DNA of 64,000 bases from Torpedo marmorata (taxonomy: Eukaryota): positions 16,368,001 to 16,432,000 of the forward strand of contig OZ360234.1 in the NCBI GenBank assembly GCA_977017645.1, written 5' to 3'. Every line of letters begins with the position of its first letter. Position 1 is the first letter of the stretch. The notes under the pieces were generated by a model. The model saw only the letters and a list, made by a program, of their open reading frames with translations. It searched no databases and was not told the DNA's origin. Positions 8,230 through 62,205 of this stretch are shown here, piece after piece. Made by a program: the position numbers and the translations under genes.

Positions 8230-9782
8230 TTTTAAGGATTTAAATTTAATTATTAGGAAATTTTTGTGGAAAGTTGGTTAGAGTAGGTATGGAGAAATTA
8301 ACCTGGGATTATGAAATGGGTGGTTTACAATTTCCTAATTTTCAAAATTATTATAAAGCAGCTCAATTAAAATTTATTAATGAAATGTTTGATTTAGGAA
8401 AATCTTCTGCTTGGATTAGAATAGAATTAAATAATATAGGAGAAGATTTGAAAGAAGAGGTTATTTATAAATGGGATTCTAAATTATTATTAAGAGGAGA
8501 TAAGAACTCCCCTATTTTAAGGCATTTGTTAGAAATATGGAATAAACTGGATCAGGAGATAGGAGGGAAAGGGTTAATTTCTTGTAAAATGCCTTTTTAT
8601 CAAAATAAACTTATCCCATTTACTATTGCTAATCAATTGTTTAAAATTTGGTTTCAAAAAGGGATTAAAAAAGTAAGTGACTGTTTTGAAGCTGGTAAAT
8701 TTATTACTTTTCAAAGAATGAAAGAGTAGTTTAATGTATTAACCAATACACTCTTTGCTTATTATCAAATAAGAGCATTTTTGGTTGAAAAGTTAGGGCA
8801 TAGTTTAATCTTACCGAGACAAAGTGAATTGGAGTTACTAGTTATTAATGGGGGTATAAATAACTATTTCTCAAATGTATAGATTGTTACAGAAAAAAAT
8901 GCTAAAACCAGGAATTCATAGATCAAGATTAAAATGGGAATTAGATCTGAATGTAACAATAGATGAGGAACATTGGAAAGAAATATGTAAACAATGTATG
9001 ATGAAGATTATTAATGTTAGATACAGGTTAGTGCAATATAATTTTTTGCATCAGTTATATTTAACTCCAAAGAAACTTTAAAAATTTAATCCGACATTAT
9101 CAGGTTTATGTTTTAGATGTAATAAAGAGGAAGGTTCTTTTGTACATTCTACGTGGTTTTGTCCAAAGATATATGATTTTTGGTTGAAAGTTAAAAAGTT
9201 TTTAGATAAAGTATTGAGAATTACACTCCCAATGGATCCTAGGATATTTTTGTTTGGAAATATTAAAAGAATTAGTAATAAAATGAGATTAAATATGTAC
9301 CAAATAGAATTTTTGCGAATTGCTTTAGCTGTTTCAAAGAAATGCATTGCTATTACATGGAAATCTGATGTAGATTTAGGGTTAGAAACATGGCATGCAG
9401 AACTTCGTTCATGCATACCACTTGAAAAAATTACCGGTACTTATAATTTACGTAATAAATATCATTTCTTTTTGAAGGTATGGAGCCCATATACAAAAAC
9501 TGTGGGTTTAAGGATTTGAAGATCTCTTGATATCGGGTCTGACTGGCAAACCTGTGTTCCACAATAAAATTAATTTATAGTTGTTTCTTTTAGAATGACA
9601 TTCTCCACACTCTATTCTTTTTTCTTTCTTTTTTAGTAGAGTAGAGGGGGTGGTTGGGTTAGGGAGGGAGGGGGAGGGTGAAAATATATCACATGTATTT
9701 TGAAAATTTTGTATTTTATAAACATGTATTATTGTGTGATTTAAAATTTTAAATAAACTATTAAAAAAAATAAAATAAAAAA
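8230..9782 (+). mobile_element. 5'-truncated L1-clade LINE (ORF2 C-terminus, 3' UTR, poly-A)
   Basis: MGGLQFPNFQNYYKAAQL, YRLVQYNFLHQLYLTP, CCHC region, G-rich UTR and A tail. 16-bp TSD AGATTTA(T/C)AGTCGATT at 8214-8229 and 9783-9798. Confidence 0.93.
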
Positions 9783-11754
9783 AGATTTACAGTCGATTAA
9801 CATGAATGACAGATATACTTCGACATACTCACTAGGATGTCCCATACTGTATTCAGTGGACAATTACGGTAGCCACCAAAGCTGCTTTCGTTAGACCTAA
9901 AGCTGTGAAGGAAATCAAATACAAATCGATGAAAGTTGAGGGGGGGGGGGCAGGAAGAAAAAGAGCATGAGGAAAAATAATGTGTGGTGGTGGGTCGGGG
10001 GAGAGAGAACCCATGAGGGGAAAAGGGGGCAAATATCATTAAAAAAAGGTTTCCATTATAATTCTAAGAATGTTATTTGAGGGAATACTCTACCAGAGGG
10101 GAAAAAAAGAATTTTGCATTTAAAGGACATCAGTTGCTTCAAGCACAACGAAGGCGAACAACCAATTTGCCTACACTGACTTTCGCTGTGACATTTTCTG
10201 AAATAAATATTCAAATTTGATTCAATGACAATTCAAGTTATTGACATCCTTTATGGTTTAACCTTCACCAGAAAAAAGTGTGCACTCCTCTACAGAAAAA
10301 AATTCAATTAATTGATTGATTCTTGAATGGATAAACAGGGATTTTATTTACGTAAAACAAAGCGAAATATTAAATGTGAGAAGAACAAATGAAAATGGAA
10401 GTTAAAAAATGAAAAGAAATGCCAATGTTCTAATTTGGCCAAACACCGATATCTGAAATTTCAATGACTGATTTCTTATATTTTGGCATAATGTGTATAG
10501 TTTCGCTTCTTGACTAAAAGTATCTTGATTTCAGTTAAAATTATTTTCATCATAATCAACTTCATTCAGTAAGAACAAAGGAATTTATCAATTGATGGCT
10601 ATTTGAATGAAAAATAGTTTGGCTACTAGTTTTTATAAAAGCATCACCAGTTACATTTTTACAATCATTAATGCATGATATACAAAATCAAAAACACTTC
10701 AAAAAATTATCTTCTGCCAGACACATTTTCTATTATTGAAAATGGGTATCTTAGTGCTCAAGGTATTTAACGAGCATGATGTGGAATATATAGTACTGGA
10801 ACTGTTATGGTTAAATTTATCATAAATTCTCATTTCAAAAGAAGAATATGGCTTCATTCAGCAGCTATGGAAAAGAAATGATCAATGATAGGATAAACCA
10901 ACATACTATGGGGCTATTTCATTGCCTAAGTTTTTTTTCAAGTCAGGTTATTCACAATAAAATACAATACCAAACGTGCTTCCTGTCGCCAAAGTTTGGA
11001 TACTTTGATCCTTTTTCAAACTGCAGAGGGTACATTTTGTCCAATGCACAAATCAGTACAAGCAAAATGTAACGTGTAATAATTAACATGCAGATATATT
11101 TGCATCACCCTTATAGAGCATTATCTGAAAGGATGCCCTGGATTTTAGGGAACAATATTTATCAAGTCAATGGGATGTATACGAAACATTGTTCCACCAT
11201 GATTCATGGAATAATGGCAATATATTGGGCATTCATATGGAATTGGTTAATGATCAAAACGAAAGTGAGATGTGGATATTTTATAGCTGACAAACTATTG
11301 GGCTTCAGCCATTTACATAAATGAATACACTACTGTTCTTTCAGTCACTGTTAATACAAATAAGGTGGGAAATTGCAATAACATGAAATCCTGCAAGGAA
11401 TTTACAGGTTGATTAAGTGAAATGTGAGAGAATAAAGTGCATAAAGAGTATAAAATCTAAGATGATCCATTTTGGTAGAATTAAAAAGCGTATTATTTTA
11501 ATATTGAGACACCAATGAATTCTAATGCTCAGAACATTTTTGATGTCAGCATTCAAGAAACATTTAGAATGCAAGTACAGCAAGTAGTTAGGAAGGAAAG
11601 TGGAACATTGGTGTTTCTTACAGGAATGAAATACAAAGTTAGAATAACCTTGTTGTACTGAGAACGCACCTGGAATATTGTACACAATGTTGGTCTCCAG
11701 CTTCCAAAGGTATAATCACCATGGAAGTAGTGAAGAATGCTCTCTAGATTGATG

Positions 11755-12842
11755 TGAAACACGAATGTCTGCAGACGCTGTGATTGTAGTAAAAACACAA
11801 ATGCTGGAGGAAATCAACATGTCTCGCAGCATCCAATAGGAGATAAAGATGTACAATCGATGTTTCAGGCCAGAGCCCTTCTTCAAGGTTTGAGTAAAAA
11901 GCAGGCAGGCGCCTGAATTAAAAGAAAGGACAGGGGGAGGAGTACAGACCAACAGACAAAATGTGTTAATTGGATTTGGATAGGACAGGAGGGAGGAATG
12001 GTAAGAATTGATTGGGGAATGGGGGAGGAGGTTGATGGCTCTGTGAATGCAGAGCTGGGGGAAAGACAAAGGGAAGAGAAACAGAGCTAGAGGAAAGGGG
12101 ACCTAGTGAAAGATGGTGTGGGGGCGGGGGGCGGCTGGCTAACAGAGAAGTGGATGTTAATGCCATCCAATTTGAGGGTGCTCAGACGGAATACGAGGTG
12201 TTGTTTCTCCAATTTGCAGTTGGTCTCAGTCTGGCAGTGCACGAGACCGTGGACATACATGTCGGCAAGGGATTGGGCGGAGAATTTCAATGGGTGGCCA
12301 CTGGAAGATCCCCATTATTGCAGCAGACAAAGCAGAGTTGCTCAACAAAGTGATCTGCCGGTCTGCATCCAGTCTCCCTGAAGTAGAGCACCAGATGCAT
12401 CATACAGTGCTCCTGTTGTGGTCTCCTCTACATCCAAGAGAACACCACCTCAGATTCTGTCTGGGCATCCTCCAACTGGATGGCATTAACATCGACCTCC
12501 AGTTCCCGTTAGCCCCCACCCCATCGACCACCATTTCTCCTTTCCTCTAGCTCTGTCTCTCCCTCTCTTCCGTCTCCTTTCCCCCAGCCCTGCATTCAGT
12601 CAACTCTACCCCCCCCCCAATCAACTCTCACCTTTCCTCTCTTGTCCTCCGAAACAGATCCAATTAACAACTTTTATCTGCTGATCTGTGCTCCTCCCCA
12701 TGCCCTTTCTTTTAATTCAGGCACCTGCTTGCTTTTTACTCAGACCTTGAAGAAGGGCTCAGGTCTGAAATGTAGGTTGCAATATCTTTACCTCCTATGG
12801 ATGCTACGAGACCTGCTGAGTTCCTCCAGCATTTGTTTTTAC
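11755..12842. mobile_element. Penelope-like element remnant with inverted arms
   Basis: GIY-YIG C-terminal remnant (KLEKQHLVFRLSTLKLDGINI) on both strands, diverged inverted arms and decayed hammerhead motifs. 17-bp TSD with 3 mismatches at 11738-11754 and 12843-12859. Confidence 0.8.
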
Positions 12843-13950
12843 TGCTCTTTTGATTGGTGCCTGGGATGCAAGAAACACATTGTGAAGAGATTAGGCACAA
12901 TGAATGGTACTTAGAAGAAATTGCAATCTTATTTAACTAATATTTTCAGGACACTTTACAAGGTGGGTTCCACGATGATGTTTCTTCTGGAATCACTGAG
13001 CAGGCAATTTCTTTACTCAGATGATTCTGAATCTTTAGAATCATCTACTCCAGAGTTATGGATACTGAATCATTGTAAATTAATAGCAATGATAGATCTT
13101 TGGTCTATAAAGTCATCGATGAGTTCAGCCATGATCCAAATGACAACAGGTTCAAAGGTTACTCCTACTTCTCTATCTTCAATTTCTACAAAATAAAACC
13201 ACAAAGGAAATGCTTAAAAGCCTTACCTGTTATCAACTATTTGTCTTAACTATCCATTAAATGTGACAAAGGAGAGACATTGTGGGAACATAAAATTGCC
13301 TGAACTAGCACTAGTAACCTTTCACTCCGATGTCACTGGCCATCACCTGCAAGAAATGTAAGCATGTAACACTGGAAAAATTCACTTCCACAGAGTAGGT
13401 GCTTTACATGTTGCCCATTACAAATACCTGATCCAAGAATGTTCGCCGTTGACAAGGGTACCTAACATACAAAGCACTAATTCCACAATATCACTCTTAA
13501 CATTTAATGTATGATGCTTTTACATCAACGCACCAGATATCATAATTTTGCACACCTAATTATTACCATTTGTTTTCATATCAAAACAAGGGAGCACGAT
13601 TTCTTATATCAAGTATACACATTGCAAAGATGGATCCTTAAGAGAAAAATTACAAAATAAAGTTTGAATAAAAATGTAATGTTTATGCAAATATCATAAA
13701 CTGCAGCAAAAAAATACCCAGCTTTGCTATTTAAATATGCAATGTAAAATTCAGTGCAATGGACCACATTTGAAATGTTAAAATTTTACTGAAAAATAAC
13801 CAGAAATAACCGGCACCTTTAAACATGAAGAGCCCCTCATTAGTTTATTGTTCTTAGTGAAAGCATCTTTTTGGCTAGTCAAAATACTACCTACTTGAAT
13901 CTAAAAAATGGAGGTCATGTAAACCTTTTCTCAAGGATTGCATCCCATTT

Positions 13951-14721
13951 AAGTATGACTAAGATTATTAATGTCAGATATAGACTAGTGCAATATAATT
14001 TTTTCCATCAATTATATTTAACACCTAAAAAATTAAAATTTAATCCGACACTAACTGGTTTACGTTTTAGATGTAACAGAGAGGAAGGTTCTTTTATACA
14101 TTCTACATGGCTTTGTCCAAAGATATATGATTTTTGGTTGAAAGTTAAAAAGTTTTTAGATAAAGTATTAAGAATTATACTCCCAAGGGATCCTATGATA
14201 TTTTTATTTGGAAATATTAAAAGAATTAGTACCAAGCTGAAATTAAATATGTATCAAATAGAATTTTTGCGAATTGCTTTAGCTGTTTCAAAGAAATGTA
14301 TTGCTATTACTTGGAAATCTGATGTAGATTTAGGGTTAGAAAGGTGGCATGCAGAACTTCGTTCATGTATACCACTTGAAAAAATTACCGCACTTACAAT
14401 TTACGTAATAAATATCATTTATTTTTGAAAACATGGAGTCCATATATAAAAACAGTTGGTTTAAGGATTTGAAGATCTCTGGATATCAGATCTGACTGGT
14501 GATCCTATTTTCCACAATAAAATTAGTTTATAGTTCTTTTTTTTTTCAGATTGACATTCTCCTTATATCTTTTTCTTTCTTTATTTTCTATTTTATAGAT
14601 TAGTAGGGGTGGGAGGGAGGCTGGGGGGGGGGGAGAAAATATATCACATGTATTTTGATAATTTTGCATTTTGTAGTGTATTGTGTGATTTAAAATTTTA
14701 AATAAAATATTTTTTTTAAAA
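13951..14721 (+). mobile_element. 5'-truncated L1, same family as 8230-9782
   Basis: Near-identical ORF2 C-terminus; perfect 18-bp TSD AAGGATTGCATCCCATTT at 13933-13950 and 14722-14739. Confidence 0.93.
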
Positions 14722-14789
14722 AAGGATTGCATCCCATTTTCTTTGTTAGTTTCTAAATACCATGACAATTCAAATAACTGCCAACCCCT

Positions 14790-24785: not shown

Positions 24786-24789
24786 TGCG

Positions 24790-43455: not shown

Positions 43456-43751
43456 TTGAACAGTTTTGAGCTTGAGTCAATGGAGCTGTACAATCCAGGC
43501 AAGTATATTTCAGCATCTTCCCCAGTTAATGCCTTGTAGATGGGAGAAAGGCTTTATGCTGTCAGGAACAAGTAACTCAACCCTGAATATCAAGCCATTT
43601 CCCTGGTTTTGAAACGCATCGATTCTTTGATCAACGTTGGGGCCAAGAATAGCAGAGGTAGGAGGCAACGTGCAAAGTTGTCTTGGTACGTCCTGTTCAG
43701 AAAAAGTAGAACTAGTCTCATGTGGCCAGCAACCACCCAATCAACAAAGCA
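43116..43751 (+). repeat. 636-bp segment, source copy of a local duplication
   Basis: Appears identical to 47250-47885 at a constant offset of 4134; the ORF translations are identical. Confidence 0.95.
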
Positions 43752-45393: not shown

Positions 45394-45544
45394 AATCGGA
45401 GGAATTCCCGAGGTAAGGTCTTGGGACTACCATGATTAACCACCTTCAATTACCAATATCTTCTTTTGTATATGTTACAACTTCACCAATGAAGTGCTTT
45501 CCCCAGTAGCCCACAACCTTCAAGTTTACAGTACCAGGACATTT

Positions 45545-45815
45545 TCTGACATGCTCACAAAATGTTGCCTTGATCTTTAGACCAAGGCTGTTGAGGTCTG
45601 GAGCCAAGTGAGAAAGTTATTAGTGAGTGACTGTCAACAATATCATCCATTATATTGCTGAGAACTAACAACAGACTCATTGAGCAGTAATTAGCCAGAA
45701 CTGGATTTGTCTTCTGTGGGTGCGACATACCTGGGCAATTTTCCATTGTCGGATCAGTGCCAGTGTTCTTACTGTTCTGGAACAGCTTGACAGGAGGCGC
45801 AGCTAGTCCTGGAAT
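45545..45815 (-). mobile_element. Old CR1/L2-group LINE RT fragment
   Basis: Decayed translation LAAPPVKLFQNS..TG...WKIAQVC...NPVLANYCSMSLL resembles the WK.A.V.P..K....NYRPISL motif. Confidence 0.6.
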
Positions 45816-46374
45816 GCCTCAATAGTAGAGACAGTAAACTCACAGTTAAGAACTGCAGTACTACTATTAGCCAGTCCAAGAAAATTTGCTTTCTCTTAAA
45901 AAGAAATGGTCTTACAAAACCGATTTAAAATCATGAGGTGTCAACATTGTGTGCATGAAACGAAAATAAAAATACTGAATGCACTGAAATATGCTTATAA
46001 AATTATACATACAAAAAGTAAACATTTGAATATTGCAGTTGCAATGACAACTTATGCAAAAATTCAGAAAGTTGATAATGATTAAGACAGGATTTGTTTT
46101 ACAACTTTCGAGTATAATCTTGTAATTCAGCACCTGATGACAATTTCAGTTAATTATGAATATACTCAATATTTAGTTGCACATGAAAGCAATCTTGTAA
46201 ATGGCATGCTGCATATTATTTACCCTTAAGCAATCACCCTTAACACAACTTGTACATATGGTAAGCGTCTCAGAACATCATTCTACTAGAAATTATTCAA
46301 CATTTTACTTTCTACCATGTGTAGTATGTTACAATTAACAATTTTAATTTTTTTTTATATACTTAATTTGATAA

Positions 46375-46720
46375 CGTCTGGCAAAATGGTACTGCTGCCT
46401 CAGTGCCAGAGAACTGACACAGGGAGCTGCCTGCATGGAGTTTGCTCATTCTCTTGTGACCACCTGGGTTTCTATTGTCACAGGAGTGATGTTCCAGTGT
46501 CCCCCCACACAGCTAACACATGCAAGATGGTAGATTAACTAGCTGTTGCAAATTACTCAGAATGAGTGGTAGAATATGGGGTAAAGGGGGGGGGGGGGGG
46601 GAATGGGAATGTGAAAACAGCAACAACAAAAAAAATAGGATGTGCAAATGGGTGAGTGATGATCGGTGTGGACTCTGGACTGAAGGGGCTTATTTTGTGC
46701 TATACATGGTATGTGACTAA
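46375..46720 (+). mobile_element. Old V-SINE-like element
   Basis: GCTGCCTCAG head, TGGAGTTTGCTCATTCTC core and CTGAAGGGGCTTATTTTGTGCTATA tail. Confidence 0.6.
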
Positions 46721-47113
46721 TTCTTCAATCTGATAGCTTCATTATTTTTAGTCACAAGGGGTTCCATAGAATTGATGCCTAAACAGCCATCAACATTGGA
46801 AAAAATGAAAAACACTAAGGATTTTGCTTAATATTTGTAGTCAACAGCAAGCACCATTCCTACACCAGTGTCCCCAAAATCCATGCTATTATTTCACTGT
46901 ATCTACAAATTTCTTCATTTTGTGTACAAAATCTTACATTTTGTGCACAAAATCTTACATTTTGTGCAAGAGAAAAACAGAACAATCAGCATTTTCACCC
47001 AGTTGAAACAGCTATTTTTATTATTTTTTTAATTGAAGTTAAATAACTGGTCAATTTATGCTCCAAGAAAATAATGTTTTAATGACCATTATAAAATGAT
47101 TTTTATGTCTCAC

Positions 47114-47168
47114 CTGGCATGGCCATTCCAGCTCGTTGAGCTATTTCTTCCATCCTCATATTCTCTCT
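47114..47168 (-). CDS. NONO: NONO-like internal coding exon (RENMRMEEIAQRAGMAMP)
   Basis: TTTTTTTTGTAG acceptor and CAG|GTGAGA donor; 55 nt, phase 0 to 1, in frame with both neighbours. Corresponds to the short REQEIRMGQMAMG exon of NONO. Confidence 0.85.
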
Positions 47169-47249
47169 CTACAAAAAAAATGCAGTGAAATCTTAAACCT
47201 GTGCTCTTCTTCCACTTATGAAAATATTTACAATGTTTAGATTGCACAC

Positions 47250-47885
47250 TGAAGATTGATTTTTCTAATTTTAGGTAACCCCCACCATTTGGTTTCACCG
47301 TTTGTCTCTTAACCTACCCGTTTTTATTTTTCTCTACATCAATGGTCTCTACACCTGTCCCACCTTTCATCTAATACCCTAACACCTTTGGGCCCCTCCT
47401 CAGCTCCTTTCCCCCCCTTTGTATACCTACTATCACGCATTTAAAAAAAAAAATTTTGATAAAGGGTCCTGACCCAAAACGTTGACCGACTATTTTTACC
47501 CATGGATGCTGCCTGACCCTCAAGTTTCTCCAGCAGCTCATTGTTTGCTCAAAATTTCAGCATCTGCAGTCGTTATGTTTCTCTTTGTCTTGAACAGTTT
47601 TGAGCTTGAGTCAATGGAGCTGTACAATCCAGGCAAGTATATTTCAGCATCTTCCCCAGTTAATGCCTTGTAGATGGGAGAAAGGCTTTATGCTGTCAGG
47701 AACAAGTAACTCAACCCTGAATATCAAGCCATTTCCCTGGTTTTGAAACGCATCGATTCTTTGATCAACGTTGGGGCCAAGAATAGCAGAGGTAGGAGGC
47801 AACGTGCAAAGTTGTCTTGGTACGTCCTGTTCAGAAAAAGTAGAACTAGTCTCATGTGGCCAGCAACCACCCAATCAACAAAGCA
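47250..47885 (+). repeat. 636-bp duplicate inserted with an 11-bp target duplication
   Basis: Matches 43116-43751; CACTGAAGATT at 47247-47257 and 47884-47894. Confidence 0.93.
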
Positions 47886-49773
47886 CTGAAGATTTCTAAT
47901 TACTCTCCAACGCAGCATGAAGCAGCAAAACCTTAATTATCAGGGCCTTGATGTACATCAAAAAGGAATTCAAATGTCAAAGGTACCAAGGAATGCAGCT
48001 CAGCCAATCACGTGCACTTTCAGCAGGAAGAGGAAATACTGCTTTTCCAATGCTAATGCCCAGAAAAGAATCTTACAAATAGGTCAAACGATGACAACAA
48101 TCTGAAACAAATAGCTGCACATTAATCCAATTCAGAGCACATAACTCACATGCCCACAAAAACCTCACCCCTCCTCAAAAAAAAGTCAATGAGCAAACTA
48201 GCAGTGAAATACACTACAGAACTTAAGAGCCTCTGATTCAATACGTCTTCACAAGCAAATTCGTCTAATGCTACAATTTGCTTTTTTTTTCCTGAATAGC
48301 ATTGACAAGTCCAGAATTTATTGTCTTATAATGCCCTGAAAAAGTTAATGGTAAGCCACCTTTTTCATACATTGCAGTGCCAGTGATGGTTCTCCCATTG
48401 TGCCATTGGACAAGACTTAGATCCAGCAACACTAAAGTACAAATGGTTTCTTTCCAAGTCTGAACACTATTCCACTTGAAAGTAAACCTGCAGGTGACTA
48501 TATTCCCATGCACCTAACATTATTCTTGTCATAGAAGCTACTGGTACAGTTGAGGTATCCAAACTGAATAACTGAAGTGTATTTTATACCAGATGAGGTG
48601 CTGATTTAGCAGGCTGCTTTATTCTGAGCAGTGCCATGCTTCCCAAGTGATGTAATGCTGCATTCATCAAGTACTCCAATACACTAGTCATGTGTCCCTT
48701 GAATATGATGGGGTTTCAGGTGGAAAGTCACTTTTATGTGCTCTTGTGGCCATGTTTGCATGGCTGGTCCATACAAGTTTCCAGTCAATGGCAAGGTTTT
48801 TGTCCATGGGGGATCTCTGCAATGTAACGTCATGAAACATACAGATAGGTGATTAGACACTCCCAAGTGGAAGACCTTTGCAGTATCAATGTTACTTGCA
48901 GCACCGCATCCTCTTGCTGAGGACTTGCAAATAGAATGGAACATTGGGGATGTTCATTGATTATTGCACTTTCTAATCTTGTGATGCAAGTTACAGTGCC
49001 CTCCATAATGTTTGGGACAAAGTCACTTTTTTCCTTTATTTGCCCTTGTGCTCCAGTTTTAAATTTGTATTCAAACAATTCACGTGATTAAAGTGCACAT
49101 TCCAGATTTTATTCAAGGTTATTTGTATACATTTTGGTTGGACCATGTAGAAATTACAGCACTTTTTATACATTGTCCCCTCATTTCAGGGCACAATAAT
49201 ATTTGGGTCATAGCAATGGTATGTATATTAGTCATGTTTCATACTATGCTGAATATCCCTTGCATGCAATGACTGCTTGAAGTATGTGATTCATAGACAT
49301 CACCAGGTGCTGAGTATCTTCTCTGGTGATGCTCTGCCATCTACTGCAGCTATCTTCAGCTCCTGCTTGTTTTAGGGGCTTGTCCCCTCAAATTTCTCTT
49401 CAGCATATGAAAGGGATGCTGAATTGGATTTAGATTGGGTGACTGACTTGGCCATTCAAGAATTTTCCAGTTTTTAAGCTTTGAAAAACTCCTTTGTTGC
49501 TTTAGCAGTATGCTTGGTATCATTGTCTTGCTGTAGGATGAAGCTCCATCCAATGAGTTTGGAGACATTTGCTCTAACTTGAGCAGATAAGTTGTTTCGA
49601 TACACCTCAGAATTCATTGTAACTGCTGATGGCAGTAGCAAAATGAAGATAAATGTGCCAGTACCTGTGGCAGCCATACATGCCCAGCCCTTAACACCCC
49701 CACCACCATGTTTCACAGATGAGGTGGCATGCTTTGGATCTCGTGCAGTTCCATTACACCTCTGCACTTTACT

Positions 49774-52700
49774 TTCTTTTTCAATCTTTTTATTAATCAT
49801 ATTATAGGTAAACAATACATGAGGAGAGTAGTACATAATCAAGAAGAAAAAAAAATCACTATATGACATCATATAATATATTGCATTACACCACAACTAA
49901 CAAATATGTTCTCAACTCCTCAAACTGAAATCTTCCAAAAACCCCACCTTATCTAAAAAAAACTAGACAGCCTATCCTGAGAATTTATTAATAAAATTAA
50001 TCGTCTGGTCTTCACCAAAAAAGAGAAAGAAACTAAAATTAAATATAGTCCGGAAGGGAAAATACTGTAATTATACTAACTAGGTCAGGTGGAAATAATT
50101 TATAAAAGGTCGCCAAGTCTCTTAAAATTTAACAGAAGTATCAAATGTACGACTCCTAACTTTTTCTAAACTTAAACATGACATAATTTGAGAACCATTG
50201 AGTCAAAGTAGGTGGATAAGAATCTTTCCATTTAAATAAAATAGCTCTTCTAGCCAACAATGTAGAAAAGGCTACAACCCGATGTATGGAAGTGGGAACT
50301 CGTCCCACTTCAGAAACTACGGTATAATTCCAAAGAGCTAAAATGGGTTAGGTTGCTAACTAATATCCAGTATAGCTGGCAAAGTCTTAAAAATATCTAT
50401 CCAATACCTCTCCAACATAGGAGATGACCAAAACATGAGTTAGAGAAGCCACTTCTGATTTACATCTATCACAAATAGGACTAACGTTAGAAAAAATACG
50501 GGCCAATTTGTCTTTCGACATATGAGCCCGATGTATCACTTTAAACTGAATCAAAGAATGACGAGCACATATTGAAGAGGTATTAACCAATCCAAAAATA
50601 TTCTCCCATGAATCCTCTGGAAGATGTAACTGAAGTTCCTCTTCCCAGGCCCTTTTAATTTTGTCATTAGAATTTGATTGCAATCTTAATAACTTATTAT
50701 AAATATTACCAATTAAACCTTTATGAGGATTCAAATGAAAAAAAAGTATCAATCAAATCCAGTTGGTACAATGTTGGGAAGTTAGGCAGTAAAGTATTCA
50801 GAAAATTTCTAATTTGGACGTATCTAAAAAAAGTGACAAGTATATTTATTGGATAATTGTTCAAAAGACATTAAGCTACCATCTATAAACAAGTCTGAAA
50901 AAGAGACGATTCCTTTAATCTTCCAAAAAGAGAAGGCTTGATCAATTATAGATGGTTGAAAAAATAATTAAGAGAAATGGCACTAGATAAAATAAAAATT
51001 TTCAAATCAAAGAACTTCTGACATTGAAACAAAATCCGTAATGTGTGTTTATTGGGTTGAAGGTATGCCTACTAATCTTGGAAAGTGTAAATGGAAGAGC
51101 TGCTCCCAATAAAGAGGCTACTAATTAAGAAAGATTATTTGAAGGAAGCAGAAAAATTAGAGGAGATTGAGATTATGGAAAAAGATTTACAGAGAAATAA
51201 ATCAATTCGTAAGAGAAACCGTTTAATGAGGAGGAAGTTACATTATAATTTATTACAAAGTTATAAAACGGAAAAGTTAATTGAGAGAATGAAACAAAGA
51301 TATTATGAATTAGGGGAAAAAGCTCATAAGGTTTTAGCATGGCAATTGAAAAAAGAACAAGTTTCTAAAACTATAAATGCTATAAAGAAAAAAAATACTG
51401 GTGAAATAACTTATAAACCCCAAGAAATAAATGAATCTTTTAAAGATTATTATCAGAATTTATATAGATCCCAGGTTGATCGGGATGATTTGAAAATTAA
51501 TAGATTTTTATCTAGAATTACTTTACCTAAATTAAATATTCAGAATGAAAATTCTTTGGATTTACCTTTTACGATGAGAGAAGTTAATAAAGTTTTATCG
51601 ACGTTGAAAAGTGGTAAATCCCCTGGTGATGATGGATTTTCAGTAGAATTTTATAAGGAATTTAAAGATTTATTAATACCTCCATATATGGAGGTATTGA
51701 ATCAAATTACGGAAACCCATTTATTACCAAAAACTTTTTTGAATGCTATTATTAGTTATACCAAAGAAAGATAGAGATGTATTAAAAACGGAGTCATATA
51801 GACCTATTTCTTTATTAAATGTAGATTATAAAATTATGGCAAAAATTTTGGCTAATAGAATAGCTAAATATTTACCAAATTTGATACATCCAGATCAAGC
51901 TGGCTTTATTAAAAATAGATATTCAAAAGATAATATAGCTAGATTATTAAGTTTAATTAATTTACATAAAAAGAAACAGGATTTACCACTGGTGGTAACG
52001 TTGGATGCAGAAAAGGCTTTTGATAGATTAGAATGGAATTTTTTATTTAAGGTGTTAGAGAAATTTGGTTTTGGGAATATTTTTATAAATTGGATTAAAA
52101 CTATATATAGAGAACCTACAGCTAAAGTAATTACAAATGGACAAATATCGCCAAAATTTCCTTTAACGCGTTCTACGAGACAGGGATGTCCTCTATCACC
52201 AGCTCTATTTGTTTTGGCAATAAAACCTTTAGCTGAATTGATTAGGACAGATCCTAATATAGTAGGGATTAAAGTAGGTATGGAAGAACATAAGATTAGT
52301 TTGTTTGCAGATGATATATTAATATATATGACGAAATCTATTACATCACTTCAACAATTAGCTATCATATTAACAGAATATAGTGAAATATCTGGGTATA
52401 AAATTAATTCAGATAAAAGTGAAATAATGGCTTTATCTCAAGGTGATTATACTAGGTGTAGAGAAGTTACGGAATTTAAGTGGGCAAAAGAAGGAATTAA
52501 ATATTTGGGAGTTAAAGTGGATACAAAATTAGAAAATTTATATAAATTAAATTATATATCTTTATTTACGAAAATAAAGAAAGATTTGGAAAATTGGAAA
52601 GATTTGCCTATAACTTTAATGGGGAGAGTAAATTGTATTAAGATGAATATTTTTCCAAGAATTCAATATCTTTTTCAATCAATTCCTTTTGGAATTCCAA

Positions 52701-54477
52701 TTTTTTTTTTTTTAAAAAGATTTAAAGTTTATTATTAGGAAATGTTTATGGAAAGAGAAGTTAGCAAGAGTGAGTATGGATAAGTTAACATGGAATTATG
52801 AGATGGGAGGATTGCAACTTCCCAATTTTCAATATTATTATAAAGCAGCTCAATTAAAATTTATTAATGAATTTTTTGATTTAACTAAAACTTCTGCCTG
52901 GGTTAATGTAGAATTAAATAATATAGGAGAAAATTATAAAGAGGATATTATTTATAAGTGGAATTCTAAATTATTATTAGTAAAAAAGAAAAATTCACCG
53001 ATTATTAAACATTTGTTGGAAATATGGACACAGGTAGATAAAGAAATAGGTGGGAAAGGATTAATTTCTTTAAATATGCCATTATATCAAAATCCACTTT
53101 TATTATTTACTATGAATAATCAGTTATTGAAAGCATGGTTTCAAAAAGGAATTAAGAATTTTAAAGATTGTTTTGAGGCTGGAAGATTTGTTACGTTTCA
53201 AAGATTGAAGGAAAAATTTAATGTATTAGATAATACATGGTTAGCTTATTATCAAGTTAAAGCTTTTTTGATTGAGAAATTAGGAGAAGATTTGATTGCT
53301 CCAAGACATAATGAGTTAGAATTATTAATAACTAAAGCAAATGTTAATAAGTTTATTTCTCAAATGTATAAATTATTTCAGAGAAAAATGCCTAAAGTAG
53401 GTTACATAAATCAAGATTAAAATGGGAATTAGATTTAAATGTTAATATAGCTGAAAATCACTGGAAAGATTTATGTAAATTAAGTATGACTAAAGTTATT
53501 AATGTTAGATATAGATTAGTACAATATAATTTTTTTCATCAACTATACTTAACACCAAAAAAACGAAAGAAATTTAATCCGACATTGTCGGATTTGTGTT
53601 TTAGATGTAAGAATGAAGTAGGTTCTTTTGTCCATTCTACATGGTTATGTCCAAAAATTCAAGATTTTTGGTTGAAAGTTAAGGATTTTTTAGATAGAGT
53701 TTTTAACGTTATGTTTCCAATGGACCCTATGTTATTTCTATTTGGAGATATTAGAAAATTTAGTATTAGGAATAGATTGAATATGTATCAGGTAGAATTT
53801 TTGCGAATTACTTTAGCTGTCTCAAAAAAATGTATTGCTATTACTTGGAAATCAGATTTAGATTTAAGTTTAGATAGGTGGCATGCAGAACTTCGTTCGT
53901 GTATTCCTTTGGAGAAGATTACTTACAATTTACGCAATAAATATCATTCTTTTTTAAAAATTTGGAGCCATATATGAGTTATGGGTTTAAGGATTTGAAA
54001 TCTCTAGAAATCAGGTCTATTGGCGAGTTTAACCTCCAGGATAAAATTAGTTTTTAGATGGTTCTCTCCTCACTATTAATCTATTTTTCTTTTTCTTTTT
54101 TTACTATGTTTTTTTTTATTATTATTATTCTTTTTTTTAGAATAGTGGGGTTGGGGGGGTTAGGGAAGGGTGGGAGGGGAGGAAATTTATATCACTTGTA
54201 TTTTGGAAACTACGTATTTTGATTTATGTACTGTGAGATTTAAAAATTTAAATAAAATAATTTTAAAAAAAGGCTACTGAATATCTCTGCACAGAATTCA
54301 ATTCCAAATCTACCCAATAAGGGTGTTCAAATTTATCAGAATAGTAGATCCAGAAAATAATATAGCAGATATTAACCTCCCAATAAAAGTCTAAGATTAG
54401 GTAAAGCCATACTACCATCTTTCTTTAATTTCTGCAGATGGAATTTACTCAATCTGGCATTCTTTTTATTCCAAATA
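49774..54477 (-). mobile_element. L1 3' fragment (minus) inside Tc1, split into 49774-51122 and 54271-54477 by another L1
   Basis: SICARHSLIQFKVIHRAH, CDRC, AATAAA at the left end; the reading ...RYSVASLLGAALPF rejoins across the inserted L1. Confidence 0.85.
51123..54270 (+). mobile_element. L1 with most of ORF2 (RT and CCHC), frameshifted, 5'-truncated
   Basis: KSPGDDGF, YRPISLLNVDYKI, LDAEKAFDRLEW, TRQGCPLSP, LFADD, CFRC..GSFVHSTWLC; 8-bp TSD AGGCTACT at 51115-51122 and 54271-54278. Confidence 0.95.
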
Positions 54478-55206
54478 TACTCTTACCATCACTCTGATGC
54501 AGGTTAATCTTGTGGTTTACATTTGGAGTGCAGCCTCTAATTTAATATTTAATTCTGTTCATGAAGTCTTCTGCAGACATCCACACCTGCCTCCTGAAGA
54601 CTGTTTCTGATCTGTCAGACAGGAGTTTGAGGATTTTTCTTTATTATGATGAGAAGTCTTCTGTCATCAGCAGTGGTGGTCTTCCTTGGCCTACAGAGGT
54701 CACCAGCATGCTTTTTCTTCTTAATGATGTTTCAAACAGTTAATTTTGGTAATCCTAAGGTTTGGGTGATGTCTCTTACTGTTTTATTCTTGTTTTTCAG
54801 CCTCAGAATGGTTTCTTTGACTTTCATTGGCCCAACTCTGGTCCTCATGTTGAAAAATGGCAACTATGGAGGTACCAAATGCGATCAAGAGAGCAAGCAT
54901 AGCTCTCTTATGCCCGCACCCATGAAGCAATGAAACATACCCGAATACTCACAAACACCTGTGAAGCCAAATGTCCCAAACGTTATGGTGCCCTGAAATG
55001 GGGGAACTATGTATAAAAAGTGCTGTAATTTCTACATGGTTAAACCAAAATTTGTACAAATAACCTTGAATAAAATCTGGAACGTGCACTTTAATTACAT
55101 GAGAATTATTCAAATACAAATTTTAAAATGTGGAGCACAGAGGCAAATAAAGGAAAAAAGTGTCTTTGTCCCAAACATTATGGAGGACACTGTAGGTCAT
55201 TAATGA

Positions 55207-56279
55207 GTAAACACGAAAATCTGTAGACACCGTGGATGAAGTAAAAAACACAAATGCTGGAGAACTCAGCAGGTCAAACAGTGTCTTTTATGTAGCAAAG
55301 GTAGAAATATATAACCGACGTTTCGGGCTTGAGCCCTTCATCAAAGTATGAGAAAATGCCGGCAGGCGTCCGAACAAAGGAGTGAGGGGGGAAGGGGGGT
55401 GGGAAAGGCAGGAGATGATAGGTGGAGAAAGGAGGGAGGGGACAGCAGCAAAGAGGGGGAGGAGGGATGGCTGGGTGGGTGGAAAAAAAACAGGAAGGAC
55501 AGGTGAGGGGGAGGGGAAGGGAACAACAAGCAGGTTTAGTGGAAAGCAGAAAAGTCAATGTTAATGCCATCTGGCTGGAGAGTGCCGAGACGGAATATGA
55601 GATGTTGTTCCTCCAATTTGCGAGTAGTCTGGGTGGGATAGTACATGAGGCCATGGACACATGTGAGTGTGGGAGTGTGACCCAGAATTGAAATGGTTCA
55701 CTTGTACATCCAGAGGACTTATTTACTGCTCCCTTTGTGGCTTTCTATACATTGGAGAGACCGGTCGTAGATTGCTGAGCACCTCCTCTCCGTCCGCAAC
55801 AACAGCGACCTCCCAGTAGCCAACCATTTCAATTCTGGGTCACACTCCCACACTCACATGTCTGTCCATGGCCTCATGTACTATCCCACCCAGACTACTC
55901 GCAAATTGGAGGAACAACATCTCATATTCCGTCTCGGCACTCTCCAGCCAGATGGCATTAACATTGACTTTTCTGCTTTCCACTAAACCTGCTTGTTGTT
56001 CCCTTCCCCTCCCCCCTCACCTGTCCTTCCTGTTTTTTTTTTCCACCCACCCAGCCATCCCTCCTCCCCCTCTCTGCTGCTGTCCCCTCCCTCCTTTCTC
56101 CACCTATCATCTCCTGCCTTTCCCACCCCCCTTCCCCCTCACTCCTTTGTTTGGACGCCTGCCGGCATTTTCTCATACTTTGATGAAGGGCTCAAGCCCG
56201 AAACGTCGGTTATGTATTTCTACCTTTGCTACATAAAAGACACTGTTTGACCTGCTGAGTTCTCCAGCATTTGTGTTTT
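55207..56279. mobile_element. Young Penelope-like insertion with about 455-bp inverted arms
   Basis: Arms 55244-55698 and 55822-56280 are nearly identical reverse complements and encode a GIY-YIG tail (RKLEEQHLIFRLGTLQPDGINIDFS); spacer holds YIGET. Perfect 14-bp TSD TAGGTCATTAATGA at 55193-55206 and 56280-56293. Confidence 0.88.
56174..56214 (+). ncRNA. Minimal type-I hammerhead ribozyme-like motif (mirror copy at 55311-55350, minus strand)
   Basis: CATACT-TTGATGA-A-GGGC(TCAA)GCCC-GAAAC-GTC-GGTTATG: core, helix II, loopless helix III and imperfect helix I, as described for Penelope elements. The core has U in place of C3. Confidence 0.65.
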
Positions 56280-56641
56280 TAGGTCATTAATGAATTGACT
56301 AATGGTTAGGCCCAAGACACTATCCAAAATAACGATGCCCCAGGACTGATCTCTTCCAACCACAATTCCATGATGCTCATTGATTTCAGTTTAACCAAGG
56401 TGCTTTGATGCGACACTCCGCCAACTGCTCCCTTAATGATAGGGACAGTCATTTTCCCTTGATCTGTGGAATTCAAGCTCTTTGGCCTACATTTGGACTA
56501 AATCTGAGGAGTTCTGGAGCTGAGTAGCAAAATCTAAACTAGACATTGGCGTGCAGGTAACAGTAAATGCTGCTTGATACTGAATTACTGACTGCTTCTA
56601 TCATGTTGCTGATGGAGATAAGACTGCCTGCATAATAATTA

Positions 56642-56838
56642 GTCCTGGACATACAGAGCTCAGTGGTTAGAGCTCAGGGTTTGTCCTGGACATCCATAGC
56701 TCAGTGGTTAGAGCACTGGTCTTGTAAACCAGGGGTTGCAAGTTCATTCCTCGCTGGGGCCTCATTTCTGTGAGGAGCACTGGACAAAGTAGCGGTTAAA
56801 GAATTTCATGTATGTTACATTCTAAATGTAGTATTACA
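56642..56838 (+). mobile_element. tRNA-Thr-headed SINE with partially duplicated head
   Basis: 32-bp imperfect direct repeat at 56642-56673 and 56683-56714; body TTTCTGTGAGGAGCACTGGACAAAGTAGC...TTAAAGAATTTCATGTATGTTACATTCTAAATGTAGTATTAC shared with the 5S-headed SINE. Confidence 0.75.
56690..56762 (+). pseudogene. tRNA-Thr(UGU)-like sequence forming a SINE head
   Basis: TCCATAGCTCAGTGGTTAGAGCACTGGTCTTGTAAACCAGGGGTTGCAAGTTCATTCCTCGCTGGGGCCT: intact D and anticodon arms (TGT), but broken acceptor stem and T-stem mismatch. Confidence 0.8.
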
Positions 56839-57106
56839 GTTTCCATGTGATGGCTCTTCTAATTGTGCTAAACCAATGACTTCCAATACTATTTGTTGAA
56901 CTGGGCTCGATAATAATGATGAGAGTGAGGGATATGCCAGGCCACAATATTAGATTGTAGCTGTGTTTAATTTGACTGTTACTGATGGATCAAAGCACCT
57001 TGTGGATGCCCAGTTTTGAGCAGCTAGATTTGAATGGATATTTTTTAAGTGGAACACAATACAATGGTAGGTATTCCAAGTGTGAAGATCAGACTAATGA
57101 GAAGTA

Positions 57107-57759
57107 CCGTATATTTCATTTTAATGGTTTTATGGTATATCCGGCGTATAAGTCGACCCCAAAAATCTCGATGCCTGAGATGTTGCGCATTGACCGGCGT
57201 ATAAGTCGACCCCCAATTTTCAGGCTGTCTGGGCCTCCCAGCAACAACCCAAAATTTGTTACAACATCCCAATCGCCATGTAACAAAGCTGTAAATTAAG
57301 CAAGTACCGGTAAGTAAAAAAAACAGTAAAAAAACCTGTGCTTCTGGCCGGGAAGATGCAGGTGCGGCGACGTCTTTCTCCCGAGCAGGAGCGGGGAGCT
57401 CGTTCTCCCAGGCAGGAGCGGGGAGCTCGTTCTCCCGGGCAGAAGCGGCGACCTCGTTCTCCCGGGTAGGAGCGGGGAGCTCAGGCTCTACAATTGTAGA
57501 ATGTATGGGTGGTTTATGGCGGCGCCCGGCGGTGGGGAGGTGTCGGGGAGCGGCGGCGCCGGCGGTGGGGAGGCACTTCCAGGGTCGACCTATACGCCGA
57601 ATCGTGTTTTCAGGGGTCGACTTATACGCCGAATCGGCGTGAACTCGATTTTGAGCTGATTTTAAGGTCTCAAAAGTATATCCGGCGTATAAGTCGACCC
57701 CCGTTTTTTGAGACATTTTTGAGGGTTTCAAGGGTCGACTTATACGCCGAAATATACGG
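57107..57759. mobile_element. CCGTA-ended (Tc2-like) MITE
   Basis: TA|CCGTATATTTC ... GAAATATACGG|TA; six copies of CGGCGTATA(A/G)GTCGACC in both orientations; GC-rich ~27-bp tandem units at 57375-57482. Confidence 0.8.
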
Positions 57760-59564
57760 TAATTACTTCTAATAAAGCCATCATGGAGAGATTCACATGC
57801 AAAGGAAGGACAGGAGGTCACGAGGTTTCTCCCTGTTATTGGTTCACACATTACCTGTCACAGACCTAATCTGATAGTCATGATCATCAGGATTAAACCC
57901 ATTCAAATCTGTCATGGTGCTATAAACCACTTGTTCTTCTGTCCAGACTTGTTCAAATTGGAGTACATGAATATTCATCACTTGAAAGATGACAATACAT
58001 GGGAATGAGGAGACTGTTCTCACATTTGCCATGAGACTTTATGGGATCTAAAAATCAGTGCCAGGACTCCAAAGGCAATTCCACCAGTACACCACCTTAT
58101 TGCTACTCCATCCTGCCCTGGGTCAAGAAAGAGGTATATAGAAGTATTGTCATGGCATGTTGTCTGTAATATGCGATTCTGTGAGTACAACCATGTCAGG
58201 ATGTTGTGGGAGGATTTTACAAAGACCATGCTGCGAACTACTTGGCCTGCCTAAATTTACTGCCCAAGTCAGTAACAGATGATCCATGCAGTTTTATTCC
58301 TACTATTTGAATGTAGCAATAATGTTAGTACTTAGTGACTTGCTTGCATTTACTACTCTTTTGAATTAAAGACACCCATAAGCCAAAGAACAATTCTTTT
58401 CCTGACGGAAATTACTGAACCATGTGGTTCCTGACAGAAATTACTGAACCATGTGGCTTCAACAAATCTAAATGACCCACATCATGACTCAAAGCTTAAT
58501 TATGCAATATACTTGAACACTAACCATTTTGAGTCATCATACGTCAAGGATGAAATTGGGCCTGCTTGGATTGCCTTTTTATTTAATTCAGCATCAAACA
58601 GAAAAACACCTCTCTATCACTTCAATTGAAATGGGAAACAGCTAAACCACCCTGAGAGTCAAAACAATGCAGATAATTTCTGTTTTGCTCAGGGGCACCA
58701 ACGCTTGTAGTACAATATTTAAGACCTAAGCAGCGATAGAGCAATACAAAGTAGTTGACAGCTTGTGGAGAACAGTTGATTTTCTTTGTTTATCAAGGAA
58801 TCTTGTCAAAGCAAACTGTTTTGCTTAACAATGGGCAAACCCAGTACAATACCATTTCCATTATATGAGTTACCAACTCAAAATTACTCCTTAAATTACC
58901 AAGATATGACTGAAAGAATATTGGACATTGACATTCAGCATGCAATCTCAAGTTATTTGGAAAACATGGACACTTTAATCTGTTTTTTGGTGGAAAAGAC
59001 AAAGCAGTCTCACTTTCTGATATGCCATTCCCTTCGTTATAGCTCGACCAAAAACGTTGTGCAACACAGATGAAAAACAATGAATTTCAGAGATCCAGTC
59101 CCGATGGTAGTATTCTAAACCTCGATGAAAGGTAAAGACTGCAAAATGGTATTAAATGTTTGTTGAGTAAAGAATATAAGGTACATTTACCTGCAAGGTC
59201 CTTTCCAAGGATGTTAACCCAGGTGGTAAAACATATGCCATTACACTGACACATTTTTGATTAGGTGGTTATTTTTGTAATTATGTCAACTGTCCACAAA
59301 TCACGCACAGGAATGTAATTGGAGATGTAAAACAAAACTTCCTGCTTTCCACCATCCTGAATATCAATCGCTGAGTAAATCAACATATTACACAATTTGC
59401 TGAATAAAATAACTTGTACAGAAAAAAAAATAATGACATTTTATTTCTGAATTTTTTTTTAAGTAACTAAGCATCATCACATTTTGCCTCTGGTACATTA
59501 ACAACATTCCTAATCTATCAATTCACTTTAGCTCACAGGCACACAAGTATCTCAGAATCCTTAC

Positions 59565-59673
59565 ATTTTCAAAGTTTCCTCGGAATCCCTCCTGTTGTCT
59601 TCGCATCATTTCTTCTTTCTCCCGCTGACGCAGCAGTATTTCTTCTTCACGTCTTCTGCGTTCTTCTTCTTGC
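59565..59673 (-). CDS. NONO: DBHS-family protein (NONO/p54nrb-like), internal coding exon, end of coiled-coil; upstream exons not found in the window
   Basis: TTTTTCGTGATTGTAG acceptor and AAT|GTAAGG donor; 109 nt, phase 2 to 0. Translates (R)[36 protein letters not shown], compared with recalled human NONO [32 protein letters not shown]. PSPC1 has RHEEEH here and SFPQ ends KKPRF, so NONO is the best fit. Confidence 0.88.
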
Positions 59674-60314
59674 CTACAATCACGAAAAATCACATTATAC
59701 TTTCCATATTAAATATTCAACAATTTGTATAAAAAACAATTTTTTTCAAAGTGCAAATTTTTAAAGAATTAACCACATTCAAATTCTTTTTCAATGTTTT
59801 TGTATAATCCTTGCCCAATTTCCAATCAAGCATGATATCCTCTGGGTTTTAAAAAATGCTTGTCCTTTGGACAATAAAATTAGGTCTATGCCCATTTCAA
59901 AATCAGCATAAACAAGTATTTAGCTATTTGCTCCAACTTTTTTTCAGCGCATTCAAAAATCACCCTGCCTGCTCTTAAAAATGTATGGGTTTAAATGGTC
60001 AAAATATTTTGACATTTAAAAACTGCATGTTAATAAATATGTTAAACCAATAATTAATTAATTTGATTAAGCCAGAGGTTGGGAAGATGCAAACCATAAA
60101 ACTGAAAAAATTACTGTAGATTCTCCGAGCTGCTTCTGCTGTGGAGGTAGTACCCTTCATGAAGGAATAAAAGTAGATGCTACAATCTGCAAAGGTTGAA
60201 GTCACAATACTTGCCACAATCATGCCATGCCAATTAAGTTTCTGTGTGTCACAAAGGATCAGTTGACTGTTGGATATAACAGAAGTTCCACATGTACACA
60301 AAGGGACAACCGGT

Positions 60315-61634: not shown

Positions 61635-61720
61635 TCATTGCCGCTATTACATTCCCACGCTAGCTATAAATTGAGCGCGTTCTTTCATTGCCGCTATTAC
61701 ATTCCCACGCTAGCTATAAA
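61635..61720 (+). repeat. 36-bp perfect direct repeat, two copies, period 50
   Basis: TCATTGCCGCTATTACATTCCCACGCTAGCTATAAA at 61635-61670 and 61685-61720. Confidence 0.9.
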
Positions 61721-61723
61721 AAA

Positions 61724-62205
61724 AATTTAATATTTTATTTAAAAATTTTAATCACTCGATAATACAATTATAAAATGCAAAATTATCAAAATACATGTGA
61801 TATATTTTTACCCCCCCTCCCTCCCTAACCCTCCCACCCCTACTATTCTAAAATAGAAAGAAAAAAAAAGATAAAGTAAAGAGAATGTCAATCTAAAAAA
61901 GAACAACTATAAACTTATTTTATTGTGGAACAAAGGTTCGCCAGTCAGATCTGATATCCAGAGATCTTCAAATCCTTAAACCGACAATTTTTATATATGG
62001 GCTCCATATTTTCAAAAATAAATGATTTATTACGTAAATTATAAGTACCGTAATTTTTTCAAGTGGTATAGCTGAACGAAGTTCTGCATGCCATCTCTCT
62101 AACTCTAAATCTACATCAGACTTCCATGTAATAGCAATGCATTTCTTTGAAACAGCTAAAGCAATTCGCAAAAATTCTATTTGATACATATTTAATCTCA
62201 TCTTA
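61724..62205 (-). mobile_element. Short L1 3' fragment, same family as 8230 and 13951
   Basis: YQIEFLRIALAVSKKCIAITWKSD...LEKIT, G-rich UTR and AATAAA. Confidence 0.9.

Follow-up and report, generated by a model that had tools for sequence, protein, structure and literature searches.

Why do three L1 copies within one stretch of DNA from a cartilaginous fish carry three different short inserts at the same TA dinucleotide? A preliminary description of this stretch (64,000 nucleotides, hereafter the window) had reported the three inserts and an empty version of the site, and all four states were found in the places that it gave. The L1 copies and their sites are listed below, with the inserts read as transposon footprints.

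8228..9769, plus strand: 5'-truncated L1 copy (self-BLAST)
9432..9439, plus strand: TA-CCGG-TA footprint at an L1 ORF2 3' end, 6-nt insert, frame kept
13949..14725, plus strand: 5'-truncated L1 copy (self-BLAST)
14386..14392, plus strand: TA-CCG-(T>C)A footprint at an L1 ORF2 3' end, 5-nt insert
51091..54273, plus strand: L1 copy with a frameshifted ORF2 (RT domain) and 3' UTR (self-BLAST; RVT_1, E 1.3e-44)
53918..53926, plus strand: empty target ATTA^CTTAC, preceded by G, in a member of a more distant L1 subfamily
61720..62235, minus strand: 5'-truncated L1 copy (self-BLAST)
62046..62052, minus strand: TA-CGG-TA footprint at an L1 ORF2 3' end, 5-nt insert

These copies are 3' ends of a single L1 family and are 79-92% identical around the site. 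We take them to belong to the L1 clade from their ORF2 motifs; an RVT_1 domain is present, as are truncated 3' copies ending in AATAAA and an A/T tract. The insert at 14386 ends in CA rather than TA, which requires that a single substitution be postulated. Among 65 unselected homologous alignments, the sites at 9432 and 62046 are each empty in 63, and the footprint at 62046 is one of 98 five-nucleotide footprints genome-wide and the sole one on its 112-Mb contig.

State of the target TA across the genome

An insert is present at the target TA in 349 of the 87,613 matching genomic L1 copies: 188 read CCGG plus TA, and 98 read CCG or CGG plus TA (39 and 59, respectively, by eye). The commonest form, CCGG with its extra TA, is a gain of 6 nt that leaves the reading frame intact. 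The majority state is empty (99.6%), and the L1 consensus thus holds no fixed 5-6 nt insert from which the three variants could have been derived, a possibility raised in the preliminary description.

A transposon end lies at the target TA in at least 160 L1 copies (reading ...ATTA-CCGTA, with the next base not C). Among 30 occupied sites that were fetched, 17 and 12 elements lie in opposite orientations and one belongs to a related family; 14 of the 30 close within 1.5 kb, with lengths of 607-1162 bp, and nine of ten longer occupants close at 1684-2215 bp. The occupants include autonomous and non-autonomous elements of several lengths in both orientations, and the inserts are made of the resident element's own terminal bases. 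Scars appear to be at least as common as residents (349 inserts versus 160 occupied sites, counted with different search anchors), so resident counts understate past activity.

At a control TA 11 nt away, 4 canonical scars were found among 22 inserts, with 61,182 copies empty. The target TA has 286 canonical scars in 87,613 copies and is ~50 times hotter. The earlier suggestion of a strong target that was hit and vacated repeatedly is borne out by the several kinds of element found at this TA in other L1s and by the scatter of states on the L1 tree described below.

Elements occupying the target TA

Some occupants of the target TA encode predicted DD35D transposases of the Passer family (pogo). 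The open reading frame of occupant L126 matches BrkDBD (E 1e-14), HTH_Tnp_Tc5 (E 5.8e-12) and DDE_1 (E 1.9e-28) in Pfam, and 35 residues separate the second D from the third in all three occupants tested (L126, L128 and L129). Occupants of this kind are 1865-2215 bp long, with a 445-aa ORF in L126 and L129, and the occupant TIR, about 26 bp, starts with CCGTATATTTC, with TA on both sides of the element.

According to the accessible text of the Passer papers, DD35D is the defining trait of the family (PMC7386202), and its members are 1.6-4.0 kb long with one ORF of 400-500 aa, target AAGTACTT, leave footprints of 0-4 bp and are biased towards expressed genes (PMC9976928). The likeness to Passer (PMC9976928, PMC7386202) extends to DD35D, BrkDBD with HTH_Tnp_Tc5, short CCGTA TIRs, TA duplication and footprints of up to 4 bp. 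Passer TIRs are shorter than 30-40 bp and start with CCGT. The TIR end CCGTA is found in the supplement of PMC9976928, where the one chondrichthyan entry is 1281 bp long and its TIR is not given. The target here is close to AAGTACTT, but the flank preference is looser, being mainly for A at -3 (88 of the first 100 element ends among the matches listed, a hand count of position -3 only). The description of the inserts as Tc1/mariner-type footprints is supported as far as footprints are concerned, but the transposon behind them appears to be pogo/Passer and not Tc1 or mariner, strictly defined.

Origin of the inserts

Our results suggest that the three L1 inserts are very probably excision scars of a Passer-family transposon (pogo, DD35D), each copy having been hit independently after the L1 had spread. 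The support for these three comes from paralogous L1 copies, in which empty, scarred and occupied sites coexist and the insert equals the terminal bases of the element plus TA, while orthologous comparison concerns a further scar, at 36684.

The target AAT-TA-CTT is available at the L1 3' end in about 88,000 copies, and the scars may have arisen as follows. Passer insertion would duplicate the TA, and excision would leave both flanks with a CCG overhang of 3 nt, a cleavage geometry like that of Tc1/mariner. Joining of all three bases with repair of the central mismatch would yield CCG or CGG, and pairing through the self-complementary CG with a one-base fill on each side would yield CCGG. The order TA, terminal bases, TA is shared with Sleeping Beauty and Tc1/mariner elements. 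Sleeping Beauty scars are 3 nt (CAG or CTG), 5 nt net, and shift the frame. The elements studied here belong to another superfamily branch, and the CG in their ends makes a 4-nt scar possible (6 nt net, frame-preserving), unlike in Sleeping Beauty.

Probable independence of the scars

Following a proposal of the preliminary description, the states were mapped on an L1 tree (78 rows of about 88,000 copies, 430 nt per row). They are scattered, with 40 changes versus a shuffled mean of 41.0, and 78 of 200 shuffles were as low. Empty, scarred and occupied copies are intermixed, no state forms a clade, the three scarred window copies sit in different subclades, and the closest neighbours of the copy scarred at 14386 (L038 and L039) are empty.

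A scarred but in-frame L1 master, CCGGTA being two codons, might instead have spread the 6-nt insert, with the 5-nt forms arising by deletion. CCGGTA is the commonest state (188/349) and keeps the ORF2 frame, as this origin would have it; however, its 19 rows in the tree need 17 changes (shuffled mean 17.3), the insert is absent in relatives at 36684, and the motif is common outside L1 (36,489 sites, the reversed control having 2,981), which makes it unnecessary to invoke selection for the frame in L1. We consider such a master highly improbable.

The other origin offered in the preliminary description, an L1 master that carried a MITE at the target TA, was retrotransposed with it and later lost it copy by copy, can be dismissed almost entirely: no clade shares one element or scar, the L1 subfamily to which the 9.4-kb copy belongs shows no insert in 30 unselected members, the occupants are unlike in length, family and orientation, and although the closest BLAST matches of the 9.4-kb copy are mostly scarred, the query included the scar. 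The sole identical-scar clusters examined, dense ones on contig C3 and at 8.2-8.4 Mb of contig C2, were rejected as segmental duplicates with common flanks (on C3, 9 of 12 fetched copies share flanks at about 96-99%).

Further probable scars and a resident element

36684..36691, plus strand: TA-CCGG-TA footprint in unique intronic DNA
36889..36896, plus strand: candidate TA-CCGG-TA footprint, context AAT...CTT, motif only
50063..50069, plus strand: TA-CTG-TA footprint, in the same second-family L1 as 50318
50318..50324, plus strand: TA-CGG-TA footprint in a second L1 family
57107..57759, no strand assigned: non-autonomous Passer-family element (MITE), 653 bp, TA duplication
29485, 32934, 9865, 19516 and 35322: further candidate footprints

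Beyond the three L1 scars, sequence comparison verified three more probable scars in the window (50318, 50063 and 36684). At 36684 the orthologous site is empty in all three related organisms, whose contigs lack the 6 letters, and each of the two sites in the second L1 family is empty in 29 of 29 other fetched copies. The CTG at 50063 may be either a CpG-decayed CCG or the scar of a CAG-ended element.

The element at 57107-57759 ends CCG...CGG and has the flanks AAG-TA and TA-ATT, which correspond to AAT-TA-CTT of the L1 site read in reverse complement and agree with the context first described for it. Such elements had been announced in the plural for the window, but it is the sole CCG-ended one by the end patterns used (2 ends). 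It is 95.5-95.7% identical to elements occupying the L1 site in L106 and L120. Its left TIR is damaged, and the left and right inverted repeats match over 11 bp only.

Local excess of scars

Three of the four target sites in the window are scarred, versus none of eight in the 200 kb on either side (400 kb in all). At the genome-wide rate of 349/87,613, three of four has p = 2.5e-7 and is not due to chance. With ~0.4% of copies scarred genome-wide, a sequence hotspot alone cannot give three of four, and a local factor is needed; the claim of a "very strong hotspot" holds against the TA 11 nt away but falls short of explaining the window. Motif density in the window, 12.5 per 100 kb, is twice the 6.25 of the flanks. 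The window has an unremarkable CpG content, scarred L1s are not in more unique DNA (p = 0.64), and other scarred L1s show no enrichment around them (4.3-4.6 motifs per 100 kb versus 3.6 at unselected loci and 6.3 in the window flanks).

A NONO-like gene has its 3' half in the window and its first coding exon about 16 kb to the right of it.

32269..59681, minus strand: NONO-like gene 3' exons (59681-59559, 47168-47112, 45815-45723, 40377-40339, 40084-39953)
32403-32269, minus strand: NONO-like last coding exon

The window would be in and just behind an active gene whose chromatin may have attracted Passer; this is our preferred cause of the local excess, though a tentative one. Against the chromatin step, two of the three L1 scars are found 18-23 kb beyond the stop codon, and the bias of Passer in human cells is to the 5' ends of genes in the accessible text of PMC9976928, whereas the 3' half is concerned here. 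No RNA holder is among those listed for 35300-37740, which has no bearing on expression.

It is possible, though we lean against it, that the excess reflects local hopping, in which one lineage made repeated jumps over about 60 kb of a single haplotype and ended as the MITE at 57107. At least six scars lie within 53 kb together with a family member, Sleeping Beauty shows strong local hopping in the frog germline as far as the available text of PMC3271037 goes, and gaps below 700 kb between scarred L1s number 9 versus 3.4 under uniform placement (p = 0.0065, without control for L1 density; contig C3 left out and 3 of 83 positions dropped). However, 9 of 44 scars lie within 50 kb of present elements versus 7.1 at random (12 Mb of contig C1, with low power), the 200-kb flanks on each side are not enriched, the left TIR of the MITE is damaged, and the term is absent from the main text of the Passer paper (PMC9976928).

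The excess might also be the tail of modest regional variation, the window having been picked for it. Motif density is just 2-3.5 times background, and the window was selected on these very sites. Yet the number of 64-kb windows with three scars expected in the whole genome under uniform placement is 0.0007-0.06, depending on the assumed total, the two scars outside the window selection give p = 0.022, and a third was verified by orthology. We regard this explanation as unlikely.

Revertant selection, by which harmful elements near an important gene were lost and haplotypes with a 5-6 nt scar favoured, is a distinctly poor candidate: the window contains a conserved gene and is repeat-poor (0.30 versus 0.29-0.97 in 15 neighbouring 10-kb pieces), and the DNA around occupied L1 sites is richer in repeats than that around scarred sites (p = 0.058), but 0.5-3 kb L1 fragments and the MITE persist in the same introns, and such selection would lift the ratio of scars to elements, not easily the scar rate per site.

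A natural record of probable excision

The process is known; its natural record is new. The Passer papers (PMC9976928, PMC7386202) describe, in the text accessible, assays in human cells, whereas we report a genome-wide record in a natural genome, in which most scars are CCGG. A full-text literature search, weak since it took in few subscription journals, gave no report of Passer footprints arising naturally in L1 or in cartilaginous fish. A single site that was entered and left many times independently, with several footprints and polyphyletic occupants, is described for a Stowaway MITE in intron 4 of Triticeae beta-amylase in the available part of PMC1925063; that case concerns one gene across species, and ours one position in about 88,000 paralogous L1 copies of one genome.

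It is tempting to speculate, with due reserve, that on the order of 30,000 frame-preserving CCGG scars map past germline Passer activity, with the L1s as a reporter library; that the NONO-like locus is genuinely a hot zone, repeatedly visited and vacated, about 24-fold over background in testable repeats; and that the 6-nt scar is a source of recurring two-residue protein insertions. If this is true, high-copy L1s would be built-in reporters of where a natural vertebrate transposon prefers to land, which scars it leaves and how its activity varies by region. Because the most frequent scar is 6 nt long in net terms, an exon that is visited can gain two residues with the frame unbroken. Passer footprints and targets, measured earlier in cultured cells, are readable here in a natural genome, the denominator being tens of thousands of matched sites. 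The local excess near the NONO-like gene, if general, would allow chromatin accessibility in the germline to be read from sequence alone. In phylogenetic work, identical indels of 5-6 nt at TA sites of this sort are prone to homoplasy.

Two other motifs in the window stand apart from these scars. TACCGTA at 28521 was rejected as a scar because it is constitutive in a repeat family, and the TA-CCGG-TA at 57305 lies inside the element at 57107-57759 and is common to other members of its family.

One TA in L1 is found empty, scarred and occupied

A single TA in the 3' end of L1 ORF2 occurs in three states: empty, scarred by a short insert (CCG, CGG or CCGG plus TA), or occupied by a transposon end, and the scar letters are those of the element ends. 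The four variants of this TA named in the preliminary description are all present in the window, where the L1 copies share 79-92% identity around the site. One copy is empty, and three 5'-truncated L1 3' ends carry scars:

9434-9439, plus strand: CCGGTA after ATTA
14388-14392, plus strand: CCGCA after the same ATTA
62046-62050, minus strand: CGGTA after the same ATTA

The CCG...CGG element reported from an L1-like context is likewise found at 57107-57759. The flanks of this MITE, AAG-TA and TA-ATT, are those of the L1 site in reverse complement, and its sequence is 95.5-95.7% identical to two elements occupying L1 sites.

A search of the 6.2-Gb genome for the L1 anchors, allowing 0-12 intervening letters, gave 87,613 sites; inserts 1-14 letters long are present at 349 of the L1 sites. 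CCGG+TA makes up 188 of these 349, and CCG+TA or CGG+TA another 98 (39 and 59, counted by eye); the remaining 63 include, among the first 100 listed, CG+TA, a tandem duplication and variants differing by a single base. In the L1 family as a whole the site is normally empty, so the contrary outcome named in the preliminary description, a fixed consensus insert with no element at the site, is not what the genome shows. Outside L1, the scar motif ANN-TACCGGTA-NNT occurs at 36,489 sites versus 2,981 for the reversed control, and five of the first 50 matches listed are internal to the family of the window MITE.

We propose that the scars arose by independent insertions with TA duplication, followed by excision. 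Tc1/mariner work describes a cleavage geometry with 3-nt overhangs, and the scar spectrum would fit 3-nt CCG overhangs on both flanks. Joining these full-length would give CCG or CGG, while pairing through the central CG and fill-in would give CCGG, which could explain why CCGG is the majority scar. With TA, a 4-nt scar would make the usual net change 6 nt and preserve the frame. A plant MITE is likewise known to have come and gone repeatedly at a single site, leaving several different footprints (PMC1925063); paper searches found no account of natural Passer scars in L1.

The occupant resembles Passer

Genome-wide, 160 L1 sites continue into an element end. Among 30 fetched, 17 occupants lie in one orientation and 12 in the opposite one, and one belongs to a related family; 14 of the 30 close within 1.5 kb, at 607-1162 bp. 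Of ten longer occupants fetched, nine close at 1684-2215 bp, eight contain transposase sequence and one is itself interrupted by L1. D-35-D spacing is present in all three ORFs tested, two of them 445 aa long, and the one ORF scanned matches BrkDBD, HTH_Tnp_Tc5 and DDE_1. Exact element ends number 20,231, indicating a large family, with A at -3 in 88 of the first 100 listed (by eye).

The D-35-D spacing and the domains fit the definition of Passer, a family of pogo cut-and-paste transposons, in PMC7386202 and PMC9976928. The latter paper names AAGTACTT as the target, describes footprints 0-4 bp long and, in cells, finds a bias to expressed genes. Judged by its sequence, in which four listed Passer characters are found, the occupant probably works like Passer.

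Two other loci (L123 and L127) are non-autonomous Passer derivatives. Inside them lies a long, G+C-rich tandem array of 27-bp units that has open frames on several strands; the window MITE carries four of these units at 57358-57492. At a further locus (C2:29442800-29448500, L124), a Passer transposase gene sits in an older L1 and is itself interrupted by another L1, which contains pieces of ORF1 and ORF2; this nesting shows that the activity of the two families overlapped in time.

The site is a sequence hotspot

The preliminary description had offered two readings: a hotspot, or an L1 master carrying a MITE that was copied with it and later excised copy by copy. The L1 tree it called for (78 rows, insert omitted; 31 empty, 33 scarred, 14 occupied) places the three scarred window copies in different subclades and needs 40 state changes; shuffling the labels gives 41.0, and 78 of 200 shuffles need 40 or fewer. 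Canonical scars number 286 in 87,613 at the L1 site versus 4 in about 61,200 at a TA 11 nt downstream, roughly 50-fold, both TAs having A at -3 and T at +3. The L1 site is a real sequence hotspot. Carriage by a master is not borne out by the tree, and none of 30 copies in the subfamily of the 9.4-kb copy, picked regardless of site, has an insert.

BLAST neighbours of the 9.4-kb copy are enriched in scarred copies because the query contained the scar, and where identical scars cluster, they are products of segmental duplication. Such duplication amplified one scarred L1 locus (L201-L209 on C3; L086-L088 at C2:8.19-8.39 Mb) at least 15 times, with flanks 96-99% identical among those compared.

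Scars are in local excess in the window

The genome-wide scar rate of 0.4% is insufficient for three scars in four copies. None of eight L1 sites in 400 kb of flanks is scarred (Fisher p = 0.018), and 0.0007-0.06 windows with three scars are expected in the genome. Further scars and candidates are:

50063 and 50318: two scars in a single L1 from a second family, whose other copies are empty there (29 of 29)
36684: scar, absent from contigs of three of three related organisms
9865, 19516, 29485, 32934, 35322, 36889: candidate scars of the form TA-(CCGG/CCG/CGG)-TA, all having A at -3 or T at +3

Among repeats that can be tested against homologs, 12.7 kb of the window contains 4 scars and 305.6 kb elsewhere also 4, a 24-fold difference (p = 1.6e-4; leaving out the two sites by which the window was chosen, p = 0.022). 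Against this, the plain motif is only twice as dense as in the flanks. Around other scarred L1s we found no motif enrichment; the DNA in which scarred L1s lie is not more unique, nor, on 12 Mb of C1, do scars lie nearer resident elements. Under 700 kb, scarred L1s cluster mildly (9 vs 3.4, L1 density not controlled).

The window holds the 3' exons of a NONO-like gene, whose first and last coding exons lie as follows:

32403-32269, minus strand: last coding exon
about 16 kb beyond the right edge of the window, minus strand: first coding exon

NONO-like proteins of sharks, rays and chimaeras match a neighbouring exon at 100% identity, which marks the host as a cartilaginous fish. The scars at 62046, 50063, 50318 and 36684 and the MITE are intronic, and those at 9432 and 14386 lie 18-23 kb beyond the stop. 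Since Passer is biased to expressed genes in cells, active chromatin is our tentative first choice for the local excess. A trail of local hopping, which is strong for Sleeping Beauty in frog (PMC3271037), is possible, if somewhat less probable. It is unlikely that the window is a selected tail of regional variation, and selection for revertants seems more doubtful still. Overall the observation is real and the process a known one, recorded here in a clean census of a natural genome; the one unusual feature is the local excess.

Other features of the region

A second pogo-type element (2390-4098; CAG...CTG ends, TA flanks), presumably Tigger-like by its ends, carries a decayed transposase (HTH_Tnp_Tc5 match) and an internal 26-bp tandem array; the CTG scar at 50063 may derive from it. 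A decayed hAT-type transposase (DUF4371 and Dimer_Tnp_hAT matches) lies at 15682-17387. Two related elements at 55244-56280 and 11788-12843, which we take to be Penelope-like by sequence, each form a long inverted repeat (460 bp at 98%; 427 bp at 77%).

Adjoining the exon at 47168-47112, the NONO introns contain a 639-bp direct duplication (43116-43754 and 47250-47888; 99.8% identical, 4.1 kb apart), either very recent or an assembly artefact. About 75 kb left of the window lies a minus-strand immunoglobulin V-set exon (L143:4669-5136). The skate protein P0006 has NONO sequence but bears the name of a V-set gene in its annotation; read-through between the two loci, or their joint annotation, may be the reason.
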